Shown here piece by piece: positions 30,204 to 46,663 of a stretch of 64,000 bases of DNA (positions are counted from its first letter, which is position 1; every line of letters begins with the position of its first letter). Both the position numbers and the translations under genes were made by a program. Source of the DNA: Novakomyces olei (Eukaryota). The stretch spans positions 310,001-374,000 of the forward strand of contig JADEYG010000004.1 of the NCBI GenBank assembly GCA_016906335.1, written 5' to 3'. A model generated the notes under the pieces. The model was not told the origin of the DNA. It saw only the letters and a program-made list of their open reading frames with translations, and ran no database searches.

Positions 30204-33200
30204 ATGGCAAAGTACCGTCTACAGGCGTCTTGGCCGGACGGCCGAAGGTTCTTGATCCTAGCAAATCCTGATGAGCCTCTGCGCCACGTGCAGCAGGCGG
30301 TCGCGCTTCAATACTACAAGTTATACGCGGTGCCTCCGTAAGTTTGATCCTTAGCTTTCAGCGCCAAATGCTCTTTTGCTCCACTTGAATATTTTTTTGC
30401 CCTAATGCCCTTTAAATTTGATTCTTTTTAGACACGTTTCGTTAGAATGGCTGTGATATTTTGTAGCCGATCAATCATTTTCTACAAATCTTTCATTGTT
30501 TCCTCATATTTTAATTTCATTATATTTTCACTGAATCTGCTATTCTATTTTTTTCGTCTGACGATTAACATTGCAGACCGGAAATTGTTCGTTTGCGTGA
30601 TTCAAACAACAATGATTTGGACGCGGACTACTTGTGTGGAGATGTATTAGAGCCAAACGATGTTGTTCGCGTGTGCACAGGTATTATTATTGTCAAAAAA
30701 CAAAACTGGCTACCGTTAAACAATAATTAATGGAAAATCTACGCTTGTTGTTATCTGTATCTATATATAAATATACTAATATCTTTCAATGTGTATTTTC
30801 AACTTGTTTTATACGTTTCTGATGTGTACTTGACTTTTCTAACGTTTAGTGTCCGCACCTTCGTATACGGATTCGCCGATCCATCAAACGCAACAGCACC
30901 CTTATTCTTTTCCTGGGCAAACTTTCCCTCAGACGTTTCCTGCACAGCCGCAGCAGGGCCAGCCTCAACAGCATTTATGGGGTTTACAGACTGCGGCGCA
31001 GAGTACTCCAAACCTTAATGGCGAAACGTCAAGTCGTTCGCCATTAAAGCGAACGCTGTCGGAAAGTTCATTGCGTGAAGCTTCTTCAGAGCCTAATGAG
31101 CCCAATTCTCGGCCTGAAAAACCGGTTAAAGCACCGCGCATGAATGGTGCAAGTGCTCCAAAATCTGTTAAAGCTCAGGGCAAAACACCGGCGACGCCAG
31201 ATACACCTTCGAATGCAGGTAAACGTAAACGTGCCAATGCAGGAACCAAGTTGCAGCAGGCAGGCAAACCAGGAAATGAAGGAGATAATAAAGGAGGCAA
31301 AGAAGCAAAGGGAGTAAAACCCAGTAACGATGCTGGTAATACATCTGGTGAAACCGCTATTGCAGAAAGCAAAGCCATTGAGAACAAGCCTGGTGAAGGA
31401 AAAAAGAAGGGACCACAAGAAAAGAAGGCAATGTCGGCTCCGAGGCGGCGCAGTATTAAAGCTGCAGCTCCAGTGCCAGATAAGCCGCCCACTATACGAG
31501 TTTCTTCGCCTCTTGTGTCCTCGGAAACCCAGAAATCGCCTTTACCGAGTTCAGCAACAGCACAGCAGTCTAAGCCATTGGCCAATCCTGTCAGGCAAGA
31601 TAACGCTGTAGATGAAGCAAAAACTACAAATCCTGTTGCGGGTAAAACGGCGACTGCGAAGAACAGTACAAACATTGCCTCACAGTCTGCTAAAAGCGCA
31701 AGCAAACTGACAAGTGGGAAAGCTGCTACTAAATCTTCCACTACTGTCACTGCAAAACCCAGTGAACAGCAGTCTCGGGCCGTACAGCCTTCCCAAGCTC
31801 CTGCAGAATCATCAAGGGAACCGGTCAAGCCAACAACTCAATTCGTTAACTCTCGCTCTGAAAATAATAAACCAGATATTGGCCGTGAAGCTCAGCCAAA
31901 GTCGGCTCGGAACCCCTCACAGGCAACTCGGCCAGGCGGCGCACATAAACTAGCACCTTCTTCACCAGCCAAGCAGACCTCATCTGGCCCCCAAAAAGGG
32001 TCTCCTTCTGGTCCTGAGCGCGTAGTTCCAGGGGAAAAAGGGCTGTCGAGCCCTTCAGATAGTTCTTCGTACGAATCTTCTTTGTCTGATTCATCACTTT
32101 CTGCCTCGGAAGGCAATAGCGATTCAGATTCGGAAGGGAAAAATGTAAAATTTGACGCGAGTGCTGATAAAGCGCAAGGCACGAATACGGCACGTGTCGG
32201 TAAAGAATACCCTGACCACCGGCCTAGCCCTACCAAAAATGTCGACAGCACACATAAAACTTTTGATTTGTCTGTAAATACTACAAATTCAAATTCGTCT
32301 GACCGATCGTCGTCTGACCGATCGTCGTCTGATCATTCGTCGTCTGATCATTCGTCGTCTGATCATTCGTCGTCTGATCATTCGTCGTCTGATCATTCGT
32401 CGTCTAATCATTCCTCTTCTAACGGTCAAGGTCAAGAGCCGTCGGGTTCTGCCACTCAATCACACTCTATTATTAAAGCTCCTTCGCCCTCTTCAAAGCT
32501 CGAGGCGCCTTCTGCTTTCTCCGATAGCGAAGCCCCGAAATCAGAAGCCTCTCAGCACACGGCAGGCCATGGACAGAGCCACAGGCACAATGATATTTCT
32601 ACAAGTGACCTGAGTGGCAGTGACGACAGCAGTGACCAAGACTCGACAGGCAGAGCCAGCGCTGGCAGTGCTGAAAGCACAAGCAGCAGTAATGGAGGCG
32701 ATTATCCAGAGACGGCTGCACTTGTAGCAAGGCAGGCGACTCGCAGAGAAAGGCAGCCTTCAATTGCCTTACAGGCCCAGCGAGATTTAGAGCATGCAAA
32801 GCTGCCTGTAAAAATTGCTGCACCGAGTCCATTGAGCACACAGCCAGAGAATACACTGCCCGGCTCTCCGTCGAGTGCTGCTCTAAGGAGCCGAGTAGGG
32901 TTGAGTCAGATGGCCAAAACGTTTACGCCACGTGTTCATGAGGCTGGAGCTGTTTGGCAGAGTCAATTGCCTCAGTTTGGTCTGTCTAATGGAGTGGAAA
33001 AGGAGGCAGCGAGTAGCGTTGGAGGCGACGATAGCAGTAGCGAGAGTTCTGGAACGGAAGACGATGAAGGCGACACTTCAGACTCGTCTAATGCACCAAT
33101 GAAAAACTCGGCAATTGATCCGTCACTGCTGGCAGAACGCAAGTCCTCACGGAAAAAGAGAGCTAGTATGCGAGGGCTTTTAAAACGGGCCGCCGTTTAG
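30204..33200 (+). CDS. Nucleolar Net1/Tof2/Dnt1-like protein
   Basis: Exons 30204-30337, 30577-30680, 30850-33200 splice in frame; N-terminus YRLQ..RRFL..YYKLY..IVRLRDSNNNDLDADYLCGDVL..VVRV resembles the Net1/Dnt1 N-terminal domain; long S/K/P-rich tail. Confidence 0.72.
32293..32420 (+). repeat. Coding 15-bp repeat (SSSDH/SSSDR), ~8 units
   Basis: TCGTCGTCTGATCAT units in the Dnt1-like ORF. Confidence 0.93.
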
Positions 33201-34995: not shown

Positions 34996-36901
34996 AAGCT
35001 GGCAAGCAAGATTGTATTTTACCTTGGATAAGTGCACGGATACGCGTTGATCAAGTGTATATTATCCCATCATTGCTAGTAAAATCGGGCAAACGTTGTT
35101 CATCTTTTGTGCGCCCGGATACTAGTTTGAATGGGCTGTGGTAGACGGGGTTCATTGACGTTAACCCTAACTCTGGTAATGTACCAATCGACGCAGATAG
35201 TAATATATTATTACCATTGACTTTCGTCAGTGCATTTGTAGTTGAAGGCTTTTTCACAATGGTTTTGAAATATCTGGTTAATATTTTTATTTACAATCTC
35301 AATAAAATTGTTTGTCAGCATAGTTGTTTGTCAGCATAGAGTCTGACGTATCATTTACGCTATCAAAATAAAACCAATTACTAATGATTAGCAGAGAGCA
35401 AATCCATTATCTGCGAGTAAATCGCGATCAGCATATTAATAATCATGTATGATCCGGAAAATTTTTTATTTCATTGCACTCATTGAGGCATCGACGCCAA
35501 ATTTCAATTGATAGATAGAGCCGCAGCTCGGCTTATCATCAGACTCGTATAGAGCATGAGATAAGACAGATTTGAATTTATCAGTCTACAACTTTGTCGG
35601 TACAATCCGTGGTAACTCGTGATGCGGGAGATAAACACTTTCTCACCAGAGACAATTCTGAATAAGATGCTAAAACTAATACTTGTTACGTTGTCTTACA
35701 TAATGGCTGGCAAAAAATAATTGTCTGATTTTTGTAAGAAACGAGCGCCACTGTAGATCAAGAAAGCCAAAAAAAATAGAAATATTTACACGCGCTACCA
35801 AATTTTCGTTTTCAAAGATTAGATAATACAGTGCAACATGATAGAAATCGTAATATGTAAATCATCAATGCTCCAGAATAGGATATTTATAGAACTATTA
35901 TGTACGCATATCTTCCAGACTTTTTTGAACCAGTGGTTCAAACCGGCGGTTCAGCTCCGTATGCTCGAAACTAGCGAGAATATCTCGCAATCGACGTAAA
36001 TGGAAGCATACTACTTCTATGCTACTCGTAGTTTATTGGCTAATCACTAAAGCGGCGGTTATCTTATGTAATACTTTTAATATCTGTGGCCAATCGGAAG
36101 ATGGAGATTATTGATTATTTTCAATGCTCGCACTTGTTCGAGAACAACGTCCACGAAAACTCGGTTAAAATTATATGAGAAAGCAATGCATTATCAAGAA
36201 TTACGCATAGCAGCGTCATTATGCATTACTCCATATGGCTATCCGCCGCTTACTCTATGCATAATCGTCTACTCTATGCGTAGTCGTCCTTGAACCCCAC
36301 ATGCTCGGTACCTTTTCTTTGTGTAACATGACTCCTTGACCACGATAGGTATTAGGCCTTGCCACCAAATGAAAATGTTTGCGTCTTGGGAATATGTAGT
36401 GATTAATGCTTAATGCCATTGGCACTCAAGTCTACCGATAATAGCTATTAGAGCGGAATGCACCAAGCCAATTTCTGTAGAACAGCAAGAGACAGACTCT
36501 CCGTCTCGCGAATTGAAGAATCACCACTCTTGCTTGCCTCTCACGTGATCGGCAAATTTAGACAGTGCGTAAAATAAAAGAAGGGCTCGAATAGCCCTTC
36601 GTGGCGATTACTAGTTTGGGACGCGCGCTATCAGGGAAAAATTTCTAGGGTTTGGTCTCGAGATAAACGGGGCAGGTAAAGTGTACGGGTCGAGCGTAAT
36701 GTACTATAAATGGAGTGAGCATACGCTCGAACCGAGCAAGCAGCGATCAGTGCAAGGCCCTTAAAGCACAATCAAAAGAGGACAGTCTATTTTCATTTGA
36801 AAAGGAACAGACGCCTCCCAAGAATTATTTCAAGAATTATTGGCTGAAACCAACAACTGCTCACTCAGCAAAGCAATCTAAAGCCACGAGCAAACGAGAG
36901 T

Positions 36902-38800
36902 ATGGCGGCCCCAAGTATTGCCGCTGGGGACATTGTCGCCTTTGCCGTTGATAATATCGGGGAGCAGGAGAAAAAGAACGGGCCAATTGGAGTGGAGCAT
37001 GGCAGCCAGGACCGTGGACTCAAGGACTCTAATATTATAACGAGCGTGAATTCAAAGCTGAGCGGAGAAGAGGTCGGCACTGTAGACCAAGCGTATGGCG
37101 GAGCTTTCAGCCATTACACCAAGCCCACGGATGAAGAGATGGAGACTCTGCGCCGAGTGGCAGGCACTATTCCCTGGCTCGCCTTTACCGTTGGATTCGT
37201 GGAGCTGTGTGAGCGCTTCTCCTACTATGGTACGACCCAGGTATTTGTTAATTTTATCCAAAATCCTCTGCCCCCCGGATCGAGAACTGGAGCAAATCAC
37301 CTTACGCCCGATATTGTTGCCGGTGCTCTGGGCCAGGGTCAAAGAGCCTCGACAGGACTGACAACCTTTAACGCCTTTTGGACGTATGTAACGCCCGTCA
37401 TAGGTGCTTATGTGGCCGATACCTACTGGGGCCGGTACCGCACAATTCAATGGTCGTGTTTACTTTCGCTTCTCGGTCATGTGCTGCTGATCATCTCGGC
37501 TATCCCCACCGTCCTTGACCGGGGCACTGGAGCCCTTGGCTGTTTTGTTGTGGGCATTATTCTTATGGGCACGGGTACTGGAGGATTCAAGAGTAATATC
37601 TCTCCGCTTATCGCCGAGCAGTATGATGCTCCCTTTCACGTGAAGACCCTAAAGTCCGGGGAACGTGTTGTCGTTGACCCGTACATGACCGTTTCCAGTA
37701 TGTACATGTGGTTCTATCTCTTTATCAACGTCGGAGCTGTCGTTGGCCAAGTTGGTATGGTGTATGCGGAAAAGTATGTCGGCTTTTGGCTCTCGTACTT
37801 GTTGCCCACGTGTATGTTTTCCCTGTGCCCACTGGTCTTGTATCTTTTCAAGGGCAGATATACACAGAGCAAACCCAGTAGCAGTGCAATTTCCAAGGCG
37901 ATTCGTGTCATTCGAATGTGCTTGAAAGGACGATTTTCTTGGAACCCGTATCGATTTTGGAAAAACCTTCACGCTCCAGACTTTTGGGATGCCGCCAAGC
38001 CGAGTCTTATGGCCGCTGTGCCTCCTTTTGTGACGTGGGATGATGTGTGGGTCGGCGAAGTTCGTCGAGGTGTGAAGGCCTGCAACACGTTTTACTGGAC
38101 GCCACTGTATTGGGTCGCGTACAATCAGCTCATCAACAATCTCGTTTCTCAGGCCGCGGTTATGGAACGAAATGGAGTCCCCAACGATCTTATCAGCAAT
38201 CTTGATCCTATTGCTCTCATTATCTTTATCCCCATCTGCGACCGTATCGTTTACCCTTTCCTCCGCACTCGCCGTATCCGATTCTCTCCAATCAAGCGCA
38301 TTTATTCCGGGTTTTTCCTGGCCTGTAGTGCCATGATTTGGGCCTGTGTTATCCAGTACTTCATTTATCAAAAGAGTGAATGCGGCCGATACGCGAGCGG
38401 CGAAGACTGTGCACCTGCAAACATCAACATGTGGACACAGACGGGCTCATACGTGCTGATCGCCTTCTCTGAGATTTTTACCTCTATCACTGGTCTCGAG
38501 TATGCTTTTACCAAGGCTCCTGTCAATATGCGCTCCGTAGTTCAGTCTATTAATCTGCTGATGACGGCTATTGCCAATGCCATCAACCAGGCACTTGTTG
38601 CTCTTTCCGCCGATCCGTTGCTCGTTGTTAATTACGGAGTTGTTGCGGGTCTTTCTTTCATTGGCGGTGTCGGATTCTTCCTTTCCTTCCGCCAAATGGA
38701 CAAGGAGGAAGATAGCCTGAACAAGCTGTCTGAAATGAGTCAATCCGGGATCAATCGCCCGACGGACGAGGAGTCCTCCGTCGATACAGAGAAGAAGTAG
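36902..38800 (+). CDS. PTR2: POT/PTR-family di/tripeptide transporter
   Basis: Intronless 632 aa; ELCERFSYYG (ExxERFxYY), GAYVADTYWGRY, GTGGFKSNISP, FYLFINVG, EYAFTKAPVNMRS. Confidence 0.93.
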   Translation: MAAPSIAAGDIVAFAVDNIGEQEKKNGPIGVEHGSQDRGLKDSNIITSVNSKLSGEEVGTVDQAYGGAFSHYTKPTDEEMETLRRVAGTIPWLAFTVGFVELCERFSYYGTTQVFVNFIQNPLPPGSRTGANHLTPDIVAGALGQGQRASTGLTTFNAFWTYVTPVIGAYVADTYWGRYRTIQWSCLLSLLGHVLLIISAIPTVLDRGTGALGCFVVGIILMGTGTGGFKSNISPLIAEQYDAPFHVKTLKSGERVVVDPYMTVSSMYMWFYLFINVGAVVGQVGMVYAEKYVGFWLSYLLPTCMFSLCPLVLYLFKGRYTQSKPSSSAISKAIRVIRMCLKGRFSWNPYRFWKNLHAPDFWDAAKPSLMAAVPPFVTWDDVWVGEVRRGVKACNTFYWTPLYWVAYNQLINNLVSQAAVMERNGVPNDLISNLDPIALIIFIPICDRIVYPFLRTRRIRFSPIKRIYSGFFLACSAMIWACVIQYFIYQKSECGRYASGEDCAPANINMWTQTGSYVLIAFSEIFTSITGLEYAFTKAPVNMRSVVQSINLLMTAIANAINQALVALSADPLLVVNYGVVAGLSFIGGVGFFLSFRQMDKEEDSLNKLSEMSQSGINRPTDEESSVDTEKK

Positions 38801-40032
38801 GAATAAAGTAGGATCAGGGGAAAAGGGAGGTCCAAAAATGGATGGATGGGTGGGTGGATGGATGGACACGAAAAGCCAAGGAAGATATTGTTTTGTATAT
38901 AGTTTTTTTGAGAAAAACTTTACCGTGTTAGCGTAATAAATACTAAATTTTGGAAATAAACCAATTTGAAACCGAAACCTTAAAAGACGGTGACCCTTTG
39001 TATCGAGTATACAGAAGGATTGATGTGCGCAAAAAGGCGATAAAACACACGGATAGGAGCAATTTGACCCTACTGGAGCAGTTTCTTGAATTTTAATCCA
39101 AAGTAAACGAGTGTAAGCGCGTCTTCTTATTGGCGGAAGATTATGAATCTAGATCCTTGATTATCATTGGCTTACGTTATCGTGAAGATCAGTTGTATGG
39201 ATTAATTAATATTAGTGTTCAGCTATGACATCAAGATCTTCATGAGGGATATCGTGGTTCACACGAACTAAAGAAATATGGCAGTCGGACGAGCATAGGA
39301 CTCGTCGAAAATAAGCTCCACGCCTATCGCGCCGAAGATCCAGGATTTACACTGATGCTGTACAGATAGAGCACAGACTGGATTCCGATAGAAAAGTACA
39401 GCATATAATCCATCAGATATATGGGCGAATACGGTCGTCAGATGGCGTCTGGATTATATATAAATTGCCATAGCAAATAAATCGTTATTGTATAATAAAA
39501 GAAAATTTGTTTCCTGCCTTAATTTCCCAATTATCAGCATCTTGCTCTTGAGAAGGTTCACATTGATCTACACCTGTCAAGCTGAAAATGTATAACAAAA
39601 GCACAAAATTCTGTTCGTGCAACACAGCAAAGCTATGCCATTCTCATGCGTAACATGGCAAGTCCTAGGCTCCAGGAGGACTGTCAGGGGCCCAAAGTCT
39701 ATAATATCTACGTTGTATAAATATATAAATACTTGCTATGCCGCGGTAGCGAGTTCACCACTTGAGCCCCATATTTATGTTCAAAATCAGAATACACGGA
39801 AGCGCACGTTACCTGATCGTTGGGAGCCATCGGGACTCGAGCACGCAGACACTCGGACCGTTTAGCCCCATCGGCTGAAGCGTGTAAAAGTAGGATATTA
39901 AAGTCCAAAAGATAATCAAAAGGTATTCGCGTATTAGGATCGGTATTACATTTTGGACGTGAAAATTAATACTAGACTTGTATCCGCAAGCCAAGACGTA
40001 GTATACAGCTTTGCTTTCCAATCCGGTCGACA

Positions 40033-42022
40033 ATGACTCTGGAGACACCGCAACAAGAGATGTCGGCCGCTGCCTCTCAGTACCCGGCGGAAGTTATGGC
40101 ACAAGAAGGCAGCCGGTACGAGAGATGGAAGAAGAAAACTGCCGCCTTCTTTCGCAGGAACTCGAAAAGCATGCGCCGGTTTGCTACGTTTATCGGCCCG
40201 GGAATAATAGTCGCTATTGCCGGTATCGACCCAGGAAATTATAGCACTGTCGTTTCCGCCGGACAGAGTATGAAGTACCATCCTCTCTTCATCGTCTTTA
40301 TTACCGCAATTATGGCCTTCCTTGTCAACGTGCTCGCTTACCGTCTGGGACTGGTTACTGGACAAAATCTTGCTCGCAACTGCTGTCTGCACTATCCACG
40401 CTGGTTGAAATGGATTCTTTATATCGCTACTGAACTCTCCACGATCGCAATGGAGCTGAGTGAAGTCTCTGGCAGTGCTGTTGCCATGCACTTGCTCTTT
40501 GGGCTGCCCTACCCGGCCGGCTGTGCTTTGACGCTAGTCGAGGCCTTTGTTAGTGTCCTACTGTACCGGCCTTACCAGGGTATGCGAGCCGTTCATTTGT
40601 ACGAGGCTGTAATTTGCACAATAACCCTGTCTGTTGTAATTTGCTTCATCGTGATGCTGGCGAATGTGGGGGCCTTGGACACTGCTGAAGTATTAAAGGG
40701 GTTTCTGCCAAGTAAAACCGTTTTTGCAAGTGGCAATGTGATGCAGAGTGTAGCAATAATGGGAGCCACAGTGTCCCCATTTTCCGTGTTCCTCGCTTCC
40801 GGCCTCGTGACTGAACGGCTAAGGGACCGCGATCACAAGATGGGGGTCTACGATACGGACACGGGCAAGCTGGTCGAGTTTCGCGATTACAGCCCGAGTT
40901 TAGCAGCCGTTAGGTACAGTCTGCGATTCACCACGTGGGAGCTGCTCATCTCCACTTTTGGTGTCAATTTTGTGGTCAATGTGCTCGGCGTTATTGTCAG
41001 CGCTCACATGTTTTCACAGTCCGGCAATAAGGACTACGATGCGGCCGACCTGGAGTCCGTCTATGCCCTGTTTAAAGATACGCTTGGAGTAGGAGTGGCC
41101 AAGGTTTATGCCGTATCGCTCCTCCTGTCCGGGTTCGTGTCAAGCTACGTTGTCACCATCTCGGGGCAGATGATAATGGACGGATTTTTGGAATTGCGCA
41201 TTAAACCCTGGATTCGGCGTATCGTGTCCCGCCTGGTTGTCGTTGTGCCAGTGCTCATTATTGCCGTCAATTTGGGCCGTGAAGGCTTGAAGCAGGCAAT
41301 AATAATCACGCAAGTTCTTACCAGTATACTACTGCCTTTCTGTGCTGTGCCGCTGATCCATCTGTCGTGGAATAAAAAGGTCATGACCATCCTCGATGAC
41401 GACAATACGGGAGCTGGTCGAGATCAGCGTGCAGCGTCTCAAGATGGAGAGGGGGACACGCTTCTCATGACGCCTCCTCTTCCCCAAGACAGTTCCGGAC
41501 CAGTTAAGGGAGCGAGAGCAAGCTCAGCGCCGATGACTGCGGACCATGAAGCATCGCGTCACAGCGTCAATATGCGTGCTCATGTTGCAATAATGGTACG
41601 TGCTTTTTACCAGCGTTTTCTTTAGAGTTATACCCATATTTATTTATTTATATTTATTTATTTATATTTATTTATTTATATTTATTTATATTTATTTATT
41701 TATATTTATTTATATTTATTTATATTTATTTATATTTATTTATATTTATTGATATTTATTTATATTTATTTACTTATTTGTTTATGCAATTATTATTTTA
41801 TCCGTTTTATCTGTATAAAACACAAACATTGCTTGTTATATGAATAAGCTTTCTTTCGATCGCGTGGGCATTTGTATTACAAAATTGTCGTATAAATTCA
41901 ATCTTTTAGTACTAACTGTCCAGGCGAGCGCTAGTTTGTGTGTGCTTTTGGTCATCGCGCTCAATTTCGCCATGATCGTGGATGCTATTAAAACGGCCAC
42001 GGCGAAAAAGAGCAAGCCATGA
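40033..42022 (+). CDS. NRAMP/SLC11 (Smf-like) metal transporter with atypical metal-site residues
   Basis: FIGPG..IDPGNY, RLGLVTGQNLA, TISGQMIMDGFL..PWIRR..SR, QVLTSILLPF; intron 41596-41922; last exon ends TGA 42022. Confidence 0.88.
41637..41775. repeat. Intronic 10-bp repeat (TATTTATTTA)n
   Basis: Read directly; in the NRAMP intron. Confidence 0.96.
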
Positions 42023-42815: not shown

Positions 42816-44027
42816 ATGTGGGCGTCAATACAGGCGTTTGCAATCATTCCCCTTTATCTTTTTCTTCTTTTGCGGTGCCGATTAGTGGGCGGAACCCCGT
42901 TACCCCTCAAATACTTCAACGAACCACCGGGTGGTCTTCGCGAAGGTCACTATAGCGCGCGATACTTTACCGGCGTACAGAGCTACAATGATAATATACG
43001 CGTGCAGGCGGATCTTTTCCGCGCTTGGGCTTTGGTAAGCGGATGCGAAATAGTACTGGTTTCTTACTGTAGATTGCAAACACTGAAAAATTGGAATACT
43101 GGCTGGCGCACGGTTCATTGCTCGGAAATTGGTGGAACAATAAGAACTTACCTTGGTATAATGCTGCTTTTGATCCTTTCTGTATATGCTTTTCTATCTC
43201 GCCTTTGACTTTTAGGACTCTTTTTCTTGCTGTATGATTTGCCTCTGAGCTGAACGATTCCTGCTTTTGTGATTGCCATCTACTTGTATTTCAATTTGTT
43301 TATTCTTTCTCACTTCCTTTGTGTCTGATTACACAAATACAGTCAGTTGCTAACTTGCAGGGATTACGATATAGATGTCCAGGTCAATCTGGCAACGCTG
43401 GCACAGCAAATGGTCCCGTTGAATGGGACAGTCTGGGAAGTAGAGCCCGATTATAAACTGAGCCCTGGCGGCCAAGTCGCAAACTATACGCTCGACGTGA
43501 ATGGGTACTTTGGCCAGCGAGTTCGTGGAGACGGAGATAACGTTATCGATGCCCGCTTTATCGATATGAAAGTCGGCAGTTTTATAGATATAACTGCTCT
43601 TGCGGAAACAGATCCAATAAACCATCCAGGCCGGATGCAGTGCCGGAATAACCATTTTTATTCTGTTTCCGAAATATATCCTCTACAGCAAACTGTACAT
43701 GAGGGAGTAATCGCGTGGACTCCTGCAGCAGTGGATACTATTCTCGTGGCCGAGTATGGCGAAGGTTCTCTTCGTAAAAAACATTTTGCAGGTCACCAGT
43801 GGATTGAAAATTTGCACTTGTGGATCAAGGAGGGGACAAGACCCAAGCTGGCCGCTGAGGGTAGTGGTGAAGCACGAGCAAGCCAGGCTCAAGAAGCTGC
43901 TGTTCTTGCTGTCGAAGCAGCCAGAGCCGATCAAGCAGCTCGGGCTGCTTTTATGGCGCGCAATGCTTTGGCTCATACGCGTGAATCTTTTATCGTGCGT
44001 GCTTGGAAATGGTTTGATTCATTATAA
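42816..44027 (+). CDS. LicD/fukutin-family phosphotransferase (Mnn4-like), secretory pathway
   Basis: N-terminal hydrophobic segment, KYFNEP..HYSARYF, intron 43035-43072, WLAHGSLLGNWWN..LPW | DYDIDVQV, NVIDARFID..G.FIDITAL. Confidence 0.88.
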
Positions 44028-45244
44028 ATTATGTGAACGCGGGGGCCATGTTTTAAGAGTATATATAAAGTGTTTAATGAAATAGTAAAAGTGCCAAGGC
44101 CCTACGCTACTGTCGCTCGTCTTTTGTTTATGTTCATTCTTTACTTGTACTAGATCAGCAAATTAGAATCAGACGTGAATGTATACCGCGTAAGTATTAT
44201 AGTATATTGATTTCTTTCATTGCATATTGCATTCTACATCGCAAAATCTAACTTGTACTTTTAAACACAATTCTGTAATTTTTATCGCAATTAATATTCC
44301 AGGTCATTCTTTCATGAAGCAATATAGGGCCACGTTCAGTTCTCGTTCATACTGCTTAATTTCAATACAAGCGCTAGTGCGTACCCTTTACATCATAAAG
44401 CACAAAGGCTGTTTATATGTCGTGTGACATTTCCTAACCTATGTCGCTTCCAAGCATTCGTAACCAGCATTCACGTGGCGGGATCGCTTACACACGAGCA
44501 TAACCCAAAGAGTTGCGTGGAGGCACGAAACGTGCTGGAGCATATTATAGTAGAATTTAAGTAATTCCCGCTTAACTACTCTTTTTGTTTACGTGAGAGT
44601 ATTGGCTGGCTGCCTGCTTGGTTTTGGCATGTAACGCGCATATAACCAGTCGATTCGTTACGCGCGATAAATTCTGACTAATGTGTCTGTCTCGTGAGCC
44701 AAGCGTATGCATATCTTGCCGTTTCAGGGGCAAAGAATTCGGCTAGCGCAGGTACTGCCAAGGAAGCTTGTCTTATTGGTCAGTAATACGAGTGCAACTA
44801 TGAAAAGAAACGATACGGGAAAAAAGGGGCCGCTGTGCCAAGTTTTGTTTCAAACTAAGGGATGTTGGGGGCACGGCAGTGAAATGAGAACTATAGTGGA
44901 ATGAATACCAATGATATCTGTAGTATACTATACTTCACTTTTTTCTGTACGGCAATTCCTCGTGTATCCTCAAATTTGTCAGTGCACGCCTAGCGATGCG
45001 GCAAAGTATAATGGAAATATTATTGAGAATTAGTATCAATATCATTTGTAATATATATATATATATATATGTATATATATTACATATGCCCTACAAGCCT
45101 TCCAACAACGCCAAAAAAAAGGGAATAAAGAATAAAACACGAAGGCATCGCATCGATTCACGCGTCTCCCTTGTCCCTCTCGATTCATGAATTGAAAGGA
45201 ACCTCTTCTGTCACGTCTGATAGCTCGTCACATCTATCTTTTAC

Positions 45245-46663
45245 ATGGCTTTAGGCTTCCTTCCGTTACGGCGGCTTCTGCTGATCGGGTTCTTAGCCAC
45301 AAGTATTGTTGTTTTAGCAATATATTCCGCAACCACATCGGTTACTTCTCCGGTGCAGCAAAAAGTCCATGACTGGACTTCAGCAAAGCACATAGATCGA
45401 TCTTCATGTCGGGCCACCATTACGCGTCAGAAAGAAATGCTCCGGCAAGGTTTCGCTCCGTCGTTAATGGGCAAGAAACATGCCGGCCTACTTACTTTCC
45501 AGGACCATGAAAATAAAGGCGATTCTGCAATTTATGTGGGCCAGGAAATGCTCCTGCATGATTTCGGCGTTTCGCTTGATTACATTAACGCTCAGGGTCC
45601 GGACTGGTCAATTTTAGAGGAAATTGTTCAGCGCGGCAATGAAAATGGTGATGATGCTGTCATCCTTTTCCAGGGTGGAGGAAACTTTGGGGATCTGTAC
45701 TATGGCTATACGCAGGAAAGGTTTTGGGCTGCCGAAAATTTGTCCTCTGCCACTTTTATCCAGTTTCCCGTCTCGACCAAGTTCAACTATGAAGACACAT
45801 TGGTTGAGACGATCAGCGGCTTTGCTCAACAGGCTAATATAATGTTGGCGGCACGTGATGCCTCCTCTTGGGATTTCTTGCACACAAATTTTTACCAACC
45901 CTTGCGTGGAGTGAGCGATACGTTTGCTGGGAATCCGGATGGCAGACATGAAGTGCTTTTTACCCCAGATATTGCAACATATATGGGATGGATGTACGAT
46001 ATTCCGCACATTAAATCCCGAGTGGATAATCCGATGTACGACGTGACGGTTATTACGCGTATCGACACGGAAATTGGGATAAATTTTAATACGCGTAGCG
46101 TTTGGCACGCGCTGCGTGGGATTCCGCGTGGACCGGGACCAGCCGCTGGCGTCGCTATTGGTTCCAGTGCAACTGGTCTGCCATCGGAACAGCAGCCGAT
46201 CTCGTTTATTGTCGAGGACTGGCCGCCTGCCGGCGAACTTGATAACACGACGATGCCGGAACGTGCACGCTTGAGGACAGATGTCGCTATTGAGTTTCTT
46301 ACCCGAAGCCGTCTTGTTATTACTGATAGATTACATGGCCATATTTTGGCTACAATGCTGGGAGTTCCTCACATTGCCTTTGCTAAAGATACTACGGGGT
46401 ACAATAAAATGTTACATTATCACAACTCTTGGATGTGGCCTTGCGAAAAAGCTGGAATTTCTCGTATCGCTCGCACTCAAGAGGAGGTTATTCGCCTCAC
46501 ACGGGAATTTTTTGCCAACGGTGGATATTTCAGTCAGGATTCCGTTTCTGCCGCTGTTCATAATGCGATTGATTTCGACAATTTCAATTCAGAGGAAGCA
46601 GCACACCAACTGCTAAAGAATGCGAGGCTAGAACCGGCTCAGCCTGTACGGCCTCCTGTTTGA
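45245..46663 (+). CDS. pvg1: Polysaccharide pyruvyltransferase, type II membrane protein
   Basis: N-terminal TM; HENKGDSAIYVG, GGGNFGDLY, FPVS, LAARD, PDIA, VITDRLHGHILA..LGVPH. Confidence 0.85.
   Translation: MALGFLPLRRLLLIGFLATSIVVLAIYSATTSVTSPVQQKVHDWTSAKHIDRSSCRATITRQKEMLRQGFAPSLMGKKHAGLLTFQDHENKGDSAIYVGQEMLLHDFGVSLDYINAQGPDWSILEEIVQRGNENGDDAVILFQGGGNFGDLYYGYTQERFWAAENLSSATFIQFPVSTKFNYEDTLVETISGFAQQANIMLAARDASSWDFLHTNFYQPLRGVSDTFAGNPDGRHEVLFTPDIATYMGWMYDIPHIKSRVDNPMYDVTVITRIDTEIGINFNTRSVWHALRGIPRGPGPAAGVAIGSSATGLPSEQQPISFIVEDWPPAGELDNTTMPERARLRTDVAIEFLTRSRLVITDRLHGHILATMLGVPHIAFAKDTTGYNKMLHYHNSWMWPCEKAGISRIARTQEEVIRLTREFFANGGYFSQDSVSAAVHNAIDFDNFNSEEAAHQLLKNARLEPAQPVRPPV

Follow-up and report, generated by a model that had tools for sequence, protein, structure and literature searches.

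Can an NRAMP (SLC11) protein still carry cations when the soft-ligand Met, the His that follows it and the inner-gate Tyr of the family have all been replaced, and would it then still be coupled to protons? The question is raised by a single gene of the yeast-like ascomycete Novakomyces olei, located within a stretch of 64,000 nucleotides (assembly GCA_016906335.1, contig JADEYG010000004.1, positions 310,001 to 374,000, forward strand; hereafter the window). This gene, called the query below, begins at window position 40033, and the sixth transmembrane helix (TM6) of its product reads GATVSPF in place of GATVMPH. With a probability that we put at roughly 45%, the query may be an accelerated, lineage-specific Smf-type SLC11 paralogue that carries hard divalent cations with poor selectivity and without proton coupling.

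Substituted residues in the metal pocket and inner gate

Query residues were matched to DraNramp by constant offsets at anchor motifs and compared with a main set of 217 eukaryote-type NRAMPs, a label assigned by similarity only, which includes 148 of the 150 best representatives found when 1.84 billion proteins were scanned in full with HMMER. The substitutions lie in four segments:

40219..40239 (+): unwound motif of TM1, A63-G64-I-D66-P-G-N69, with Gly at the inner-gate Tyr (DraNramp Y54)
40327..40329 (+): TM2 Asn99, aligned with DraNramp Q89, which is hydrogen-bonded to Y54 in the inner-gate latch
40432..40464 (+): TM3 segment E134 ... M140-E141-L-S-E144, in register with SiNRAT according to the alignment
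40762..40782 (+): unwound motif of TM6, G-A245-T-V-S248-P-F250 (GATVSPF for GATVMPH), with Ser at the soft-ligand Met and Phe at the His

At the Met position (M230), 213 relatives have Met and two have Gly (gap in two), while at the His position (H232) His is found in 212 and Gly, Ser and Ile in one each (gap in two); Ser at the former and Phe at the latter, as in the query, occur in none of 215 eukaryote-type relatives. The canonical Tyr or Phe of the TM1a gate (Y54; Tyr 191, Phe 11, Gln 3, gap 12) is replaced by Gly64, a residue that no relative has there, and its partner (Q89), which is Gln in all 210 non-gap relatives (gap in seven), is Asn. On TM3, the Thr position (T130; Thr 177, Cys 25) is occupied by Met140, absent from about 214 relatives, and the adjacent Asp position (D131; Asp 200, Glu 13) by Glu141, turning D-x-x-E into E-x-x-E. 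Translation and relative counts thus bear out the original prediction in its description of the protein, namely GATVSPF at 40762-40782, an intact DPGN, Gly for Tyr and E-x-x-E. Not part of that prediction are Asn at the gate Gln, Met at the TM3 Thr, the changes on TM7 and TM8, a putative intron and the complete retention of the TM3/TM9 charges.

The signature that results is DxxN-AxxS. Classical NRAMPs are marked by DxxN-A/CxxM, NRATs by DxxN-AxxT and NRMTs by DxxG-TxxA/T (Ramanadane et al. 2022, PMC8806188), and five co-evolved sites (Asp, Asn, Ala, Met and His) form a synapomorphy of Slc11 (PMC9606685). The query does not carry the canonical combination of DxxN with A/CxxM, and retains three of the five sites.

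Both TM6 codons, TCC for Ser248 and TTT for Phe250, lie more than one base away from those of the family (three changes from ATG and two from CAY), so a single miscalled base can yield neither; sequencing error at these codons was a possible refutation named by the original prediction. A contig from one sequencing run (X1, at a word depth of 1043, which may be the source sample) differs from the gene at no letter. A run from a separate study (X2) provides six gene pieces that are 100% identical, none of which covers 40750-40779.

Retained residues and overall divergence

Around these substitutions the metal site is otherwise kept (Asp66, Asn69, the Ala63 and Ala245 positions, which are backbone ligands in DraNramp, and Gln427), and so is the salt-bridge and proton-exit network of TM3 and TM9 (Glu134 and Glu144, which correspond to DraNramp E124 and E134, Arg395 and Arg396, the change from Asp131 to Glu141 being conservative). 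Arg262 and the invariant TM7 Asn316 are also present, and their spacing suggests equivalence to R244 and N275. The retained and altered segments outside the pocket are:

41215..41220 (+): TM9 Arg395-Arg396, corresponding to the DraNramp R352/R353 salt-bridge network, kept
41311..41313 (+): TM10 Gln427, corresponding to DraNramp Q378, a metal-site and outer-gate residue, kept
40954..40989 (+): TM7 face T308, N312, N316 and G319, with spacing i, i+4, i+8 and i+11
41128..41139 (+): TM8 motif S-G-F-V in place of S-G-Q-S (Gln in 164 and Ser in 182 of 212 non-gap relatives)

Three changes on TM7 surround Asn316 (Leu to Thr at i-8, Ala to Asn at i-4 and Ile to Gly at i+3), each found in none of 180 relatives; by their periodicity they would fall on one helical face. 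The altered TM8 residues, Phe368 and Val369, presumably lie near the His pocket.

Overall divergence was counted over 71 columns conserved in at least 90% of 180 well-covered relatives. Of these, 21 differ in the query (20 of 70 in a leave-one-out count for which the median is 1), which thereby ranks second among 181 sequences, behind P0222 only. Nine of its substitutions are seen in none of the 180 relatives (Y64G, Q99N, I137T, L175V, M248S, H250F, L308T, A312N and I319G), and many of the departures are conservative (D/E, A/S, L/M/V/I, F/Y and S/T). At 16 mechanistic sites the query differs at six, a number likewise reached only by P0159 and P0222, as against none in 171 of 229 sequences. The whole protein is fast-evolving, not its mechanistic sites alone.

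Relatives and phylogenetic placement

The best fungal match of the query, from Lipomyces, scores 359 bits, as compared with 182 bits for SiNRAT, about 165 for ScaDMT and 38 (E-value 7.3e-9) for EleNRMT among solved structures. A mixture-model tree (49 sequences, 435 columns), into which no NRAT or NRMT sequences were taken, places the query inside a clade of 43 rows (Shimodaira-Hasegawa-like approximate likelihood-ratio support 84) together with every named ascomycete Smf. The Smf-like character proposed at the outset is upheld by this placement and by the scores. The terminal branch of the query is among the longest in the tree (2.99 against a median of 0.32, about nine times) and makes the placement unsure; an approximately unbiased test does not reject a grouping of the query with the divergent P0139 and P0159 (p 0.235). 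The query may therefore stand alone or belong to a wider set of aberrant paralogues, either being compatible with the tree. A FastTree topology rooted on three NRMT-like sequences, with the query basal to all, was rejected as long-branch attraction in favour of the mixture-model tree.

Since the query sits among ascomycete Smf proteins, its likeness to NRAT would be convergent, and an independent origin is the straightforward reading, given that the query is placed among fungal proteins and lacks the remaining signatures of NRAT and NRMT. Searches for closer relatives returned distant sequences: a word-index search reached an identity of 41% at best, HMMER against 1.84 billion representatives gave a top match of 40% and no more than 43% among the 150 matches listed, a metagenome scan found one locus at 31% identity, and the ESM Atlas contained generic fungal Nramp clusters only. 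A search with query residues 236-300 alone yielded 20 candidates, none at an E-value of 0.001 or below, and no further carrier of the motif.

Divergent NRAMP paralogues seem to recur among the representatives, none with the combination found in the query. In P0159 the gate Tyr is Gln, the motifs read D-N-G-N and M-P-I, and Glu134, Arg352 and Arg353 are gone; P0139 reads M-E-S at TM6; in P0174 and P0183 the Met has become Gly; P0222 has Asn for the binding-site Asp56 and His for Asn59; P0123 and P0124 have D-P-D-N and lack the TM10 Gln, which is also lost in P0165, whose TM1 is missing from the alignment. The 80 nearest relatives (P0003-P0082, from the word-index search) have M-P-H in 60 cases and M-I-H in 20. 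The M-I-H sequences form a clade of Candida/Debaryomycetaceae-type Smf that has lost the helix-breaking Pro of TM6 (P0024, P0032, P0037, P0040, P0042-P0044, P0048, P0049, P0051-P0059, P0062 and P0070). A further relative, P0125 (2677 amino acids), has its NRAMP domain at residues 2064-2491 and would be a large fusion, if not a merged gene model.

Constraint and predicted fold

The evidence from sequence and structural model speaks mostly against decay and suggests that the gene is selectively maintained. Its frame is open for 553 codons (521 + 32) despite a divergence of about 60%, and its identity to the family consensus falls steadily over five classes of columns in order of decreasing conservation (50/70, 37/69, 34/90, 33/123 and 21/86, i.e., 0.71, 0.54, 0.38, 0.27 and 0.24), a gradient that argues against neutral drift because drift would flatten it. 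Among 12 genes in the window, the query has the highest GC content at third codon positions (0.576, against 0.396-0.566 in the others; GC content of the window 0.436). An AlphaFold model built from an alignment of 59 sequences has a mean predicted local distance difference test score (pLDDT) of 85.9 and a predicted template-modelling score (pTM) of 0.84, and its helices break at residues 63-66 and 247-248, the points at which TM1 and TM6 of a LeuT-type fold are expected to unwind. The best Foldseek matches of this predicted structure are Nramp structures, with a template-modelling score of 0.85 to occluded DraNramp (8E5S).

Fast evolution is specific to the NRAMP gene, to judge from identities with homologues. 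The query shares 36-41% identity with canonical ascomycete NRAMPs, which share 48-61% among themselves, whereas the Tos1 protein encoded in the same window shares 44-49% with other Tos1 proteins, from yeasts of several subphyla, which share 38-59% among themselves.

Comparison with characterized Nramp proteins

With the fungal Smf1/Smf2/Smf3-type proteins (the prototype Nramp pN-I of Cellier) the query shares the helix order, the fungal-type TM6-TM7 loop and a 12th helix, as well as DPGN, the TM3/TM9 charges and the TM10 Gln. It differs from them by Met to Ser, His to Phe, Tyr to Gly, Gln to Asn, Thr to Met, SGQS to SGFV and the three TM7 changes to polar or small residues. Plant NRATs (OsNrat1 and SiNRAT; PDB 8ONT) resemble it in having DxxN with Ala-x-x-hydroxyl, an aromatic residue for the TM6 His and largely retained proton-path residues on TM3 and TM9. 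SiNRAT, with Thr for Met and Tyr for His and most proton-path residues kept, is described as uncoupled and poorly selective (PMC10115441), and the change in the query mirrors its T-P-Y, in agreement with the comparison drawn in the original prediction. The inward seal of SiNRAT is a single layer of D66, D140, T241, Y243 and T346 (PMC10115441), which align with D66, M140, S248, F250 and S371 of the query, so that three of the five are unique substitutions. The query nevertheless uses other TM6 residues of similar chemistry (Ser/Phe rather than Thr/Tyr), has Gly where NRAT has the Ser of D-P-S-N, Met140 where NRAT has the acidic Asp140 of helix 3, and Gln427 where NRAT has exchanged the helix-10 Gln for Ser; the TM1 gate position is moreover still aromatic in NRAT (Phe in the alignment), in contrast with Gly64.

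Prokaryotic NRMTs (EleNRMT; PDB 7QIA) have likewise lost the soft Met and have an aromatic side chain (Trp) in place of the His, and transport by EleNRMT is passive (PMC8806188). They have DxxG-TxxA/T and a TM3/TM9 polar path turned hydrophobic, whereas the query keeps the Asn, the Ala and all of those charges. The motif Thr-Pro-aromatic first ascribed to NRMT holds for the aromatic residue, but EleNRMT has Ala at the Met position.

Each single change of the query has a studied counterpart, whose effect on selectivity, coupling or gating is known, among laboratory mutants of DraNramp and EcoDMT (M230A/M235A, H232Q/H236A, Y54A and Q89A), as opposed to which the query combines them naturally, together with possible compensations at Met140, Phe368 and Val369. 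Replacement of the Met by Ala in EcoDMT and DraNramp leaves Mn2+ transport intact, admits Ca2+ and cripples Cd2+ transport (PMC6888756, PMC8806188), and Mn2+ transport is reported to tolerate many binding-site mutations (PMC8806188). DraNramp H232Q and the His-to-Ala mutant of EcoDMT lose pH stimulation and metal-stimulated proton flux, and the TM3/TM9 charge network serves the voltage and proton dependence of transport (PMC6888756). Conserved waters bridge H232 to E134 and T130 (Ray et al. 2023, PMC10185341). Starfish DMTRP, which lowered the metal content of yeast when expressed there (PMC8041893), was considered as the closest known system and rejected, as it keeps DPGN and MPH.

Functional interpretation and alternatives

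In the query the hard part of the cation site (Asp66, Asn69, the Ala63 and Ala245 positions and Gln427) and the TM3/TM9 charges have stayed, and the residues under the ion and at the inner gate have been rebuilt: Ser248 stands for the soft Met, Phe250 and Met140 for the His and Thr that a water joins, and Gly64-Asn99 for the Tyr-Gln latch. The original prediction suggested a possibly proton-uncoupled transporter or sensor for hard cations. On the reading that we prefer, Ser248 could serve as a hard or water-mediated ligand and enlarge the site; Ca2+ and Mg2+ would then no longer be disfavoured, nor soft transition metals preferred to alkaline-earth cations. A hydrophobic plug of Phe250 and Met140, to which Phe368 and Val369 may contribute, would occupy what was a water-filled link, and this plug or dewetting would disconnect Asp66 from the proton exit; Phe250 may in addition assume inner gating from the absent Tyr, as does Tyr243 in SiNRAT. 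The outcome would be an uncoupled facilitator that still carries Mn2+, plus Ca2+ and/or Mg2+, the same solution as in NRAT reached independently. That the query would represent a third independent hard-cation, proton-uncoupled SLC11 carrier after NRMT and NRAT, derived from the Smf clade via Met to Ser, His to Phe and Thr to Met and without the Tyr-Gln latch, is a further claim that we advance tentatively and consider doubtful.

Several observations weigh against an uncoupled hard-cation carrier. No orthologue of the query was found in the collections searched, and an approximate Fisher test shows no significant excess of its departures at the 16 mechanistic sites over the remaining conserved columns (p 0.53). 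In DraNramp, Mn2+ transport is all but lost in the Y54A mutant and, in the alignment reported in the same work, all 3796 Nramps have Tyr or Phe at this position (PMC10185341); Gly64 for this reason argues for lost alternating access. H232A is among the largest transport losses in DraNramp, and a broken Q89 network appears to prevent closure of the inner gate (PMC10185341). In some homologues cotransport survives neutralization of the His or of the Glu134 equivalent (PMC6888756). A proton-independent clade B Nramp, the single canonical Nramp for which a lack of proton cotransport is known, retains the His, 3.5 A from Mn2+ (PMC12873925), so loss of the His would be more than an uncoupling switch. 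Finally, an EcoDMT triple mutant with the NRMT site gained no Mg2+ transport (PMC8806188), from which it follows that site residues alone do not predict the substrate.

The damage caused by Y54A and H232A, and the need for the Q89 network in inner-gate closure, lend weight to the leading alternative, unlikely in our estimate, in which the query would be a transport-dead NRAMP kept as a cation sensor (transceptor) or as a regulator or negative modulator of a canonical Smf, able to bind and unable to cycle. The Gly at the inner-gate Tyr is its strongest support, alongside Gln to Asn and His to Phe; the binding Asp, Asn and Gln and the predicted fold are conserved nonetheless, and starfish DMTRP offers a precedent for a non-importing eukaryotic paralogue. 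DMTRP is, however, no structural precedent given its DPGN and MPH, Pfam identifies the Nramp domain alone in the query with no signalling domain attached, and a pure sensor would have no obvious need of the TM3/TM9 charge network, which is fully kept. Decay, by comparison, would make the query a redundant duplicate at an early stage of relaxed selection, its motif changes being drift without a new function. The long terminal branch, the rank of second among 181 sequences in departed columns, the lack of enrichment of these departures at mechanistic sites and the failure to find an orthologue would all agree with it. It is hardly likely in view of a frame that remains open at such divergence, substitutions that still spare the conserved columns of the family, the highest third-position GC content among the neighbouring genes, a confident AlphaFold model and the many conservative departures.

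Two further readings retain transport with another substrate or coupling. An ordinary proton-coupled Mn2+/Fe2+ importer would have to rely on compensation, for instance with the thioether of Met140 replacing that of TM6; the residue is unique to the query among the relatives compared and occupies an ion-cavity position in the NRAT structure (Asp140), Mn2+ transport is tolerant of many site mutations, the Asp, Asn, Gln and proton-exit residues are in place, and neutralization of the His is compatible with cotransport in some homologues. We nevertheless regard this as improbable, as the query differs at six of 16 mechanistic sites when 171 of 229 relatives differ at none, the Met and His belong to the five-site Slc11 synapomorphy, and none of the 3796 published sequences has Gly in place of the Tyr. 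Transport of Al3+ (a trivalent cation) in the manner of plant NRAT1, which the original prediction cited for comparison, finds some basis in DxxN-AxxS being nearest to the DxxN-AxxT of NRAT and in the aromatic residue at the His position. It is weakened to the point of being very improbable by the absence from the query of the Ser of D-P-S-N, the helix-3 Asp and the helix-10 Ser of NRAT: the equivalents of Ser68, Asp140 and Ser403 are Gly, Met and Gln, Asp140 is the residue proposed to stabilize the third charge, and the query does not fall in the plant clade.

Gene model and genomic neighbourhood

From its sequence the gene most likely consists of two exons encoding 553 residues in total:

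40033..41595 (+): exon 1, 521 codons, N-terminal tail and TM1-TM11 (translation; Pfam PF01566)
41596..41923 (+): putative phase-0 intron of 328 bases, GTACGT ... TACTAAC-N6-CAG
41924..42022 (+): putative exon 2, 32 codons and TGA, a hydrophobic helix with the Leu-Asn motif of TM12

The frame at 39976-41625 (+) contains no stop, and its earliest ATG is at 40033. GTACGT at 41596 falls exactly on a codon boundary of the exon 1 frame, and TACTAAC at 41910 precedes the CAG of 41921-41923 that forms the 3' end of the putative intron. The helix of exon 2 (Kyte-Doolittle score 2.43) carries the same Leu-Asn pair as the last helix of the relatives and, as a single sequence, aligns weakly to positions 489-507 of a 511-position family profile (1.4 bits, E-value 0.005). 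Since GTAYGT and TACTAAC are not commoner in the 64-kb window than in shuffled sequences and by themselves lend no support to an intron, the model rests on phase and on the coding content of exon 2. Without splicing, the protein would stop nine codons further on and lack TM12. The open reading frame originally described as intact is indeed stop-free and still under family constraint, but it is not complete as one frame, TM12 being most likely encoded by exon 2. An AT-rich tandem repeat (41636-41785; period 10 or 14, about 10-14 copies, 84-86% matches) lies in the putative intron; the Logan contigs of run X1 break there, and no contig of run X2 covers it.

The Pfam Nramp family (PF01566) matches query residues 72-452 over profile positions 3-351 of 357 (E-value 2.3e-72; 244.5 bits against a cut-off of 29.8), and a tblastn search with two canonical fungal NRAMPs found no other NRAMP in the window. 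Directly upstream and on the same strand lies a PTR2/POT-family peptide transporter (36848-38800, +; E-value 9.1e-71). A LicD-like fragment (43329-44027, +) and a polysaccharide pyruvyl-transferase homologue (45224-46663, +) follow downstream and could constitute a small neighbourhood for cell-wall glycan modification. A 785-codon open frame at 30843-33200 (+) matches no Pfam family at an E-value of 1e-5 or below.

Significance

The open-access literature searched yielded no account of a fungal NRAMP without the Met or the His. Work on Nramp selectivity and coupling has so far drawn on point mutants made in the laboratory and on NRMT and NRAT, the two outliers found in nature; the query would add a natural protein inside a canonical eukaryotic clade, in which the charge network is kept and the soft Met, the His and the gate Tyr are lost. 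Its weight is limited by its being a single orphan gene from one yeast-like ascomycete. It allows one to test whether Met, His and Tyr are required for alternating access, whether loss of the His and its water network suffices for uncoupling, and how a soft site becomes a hard one. If a third origin of hard-cation transport were confirmed, the query would be a natural experiment showing what the Nramp gate and coupling machinery can do without. Fungal metal homeostasis would also gain a previously unrecognized class of cation carrier, or sensor.

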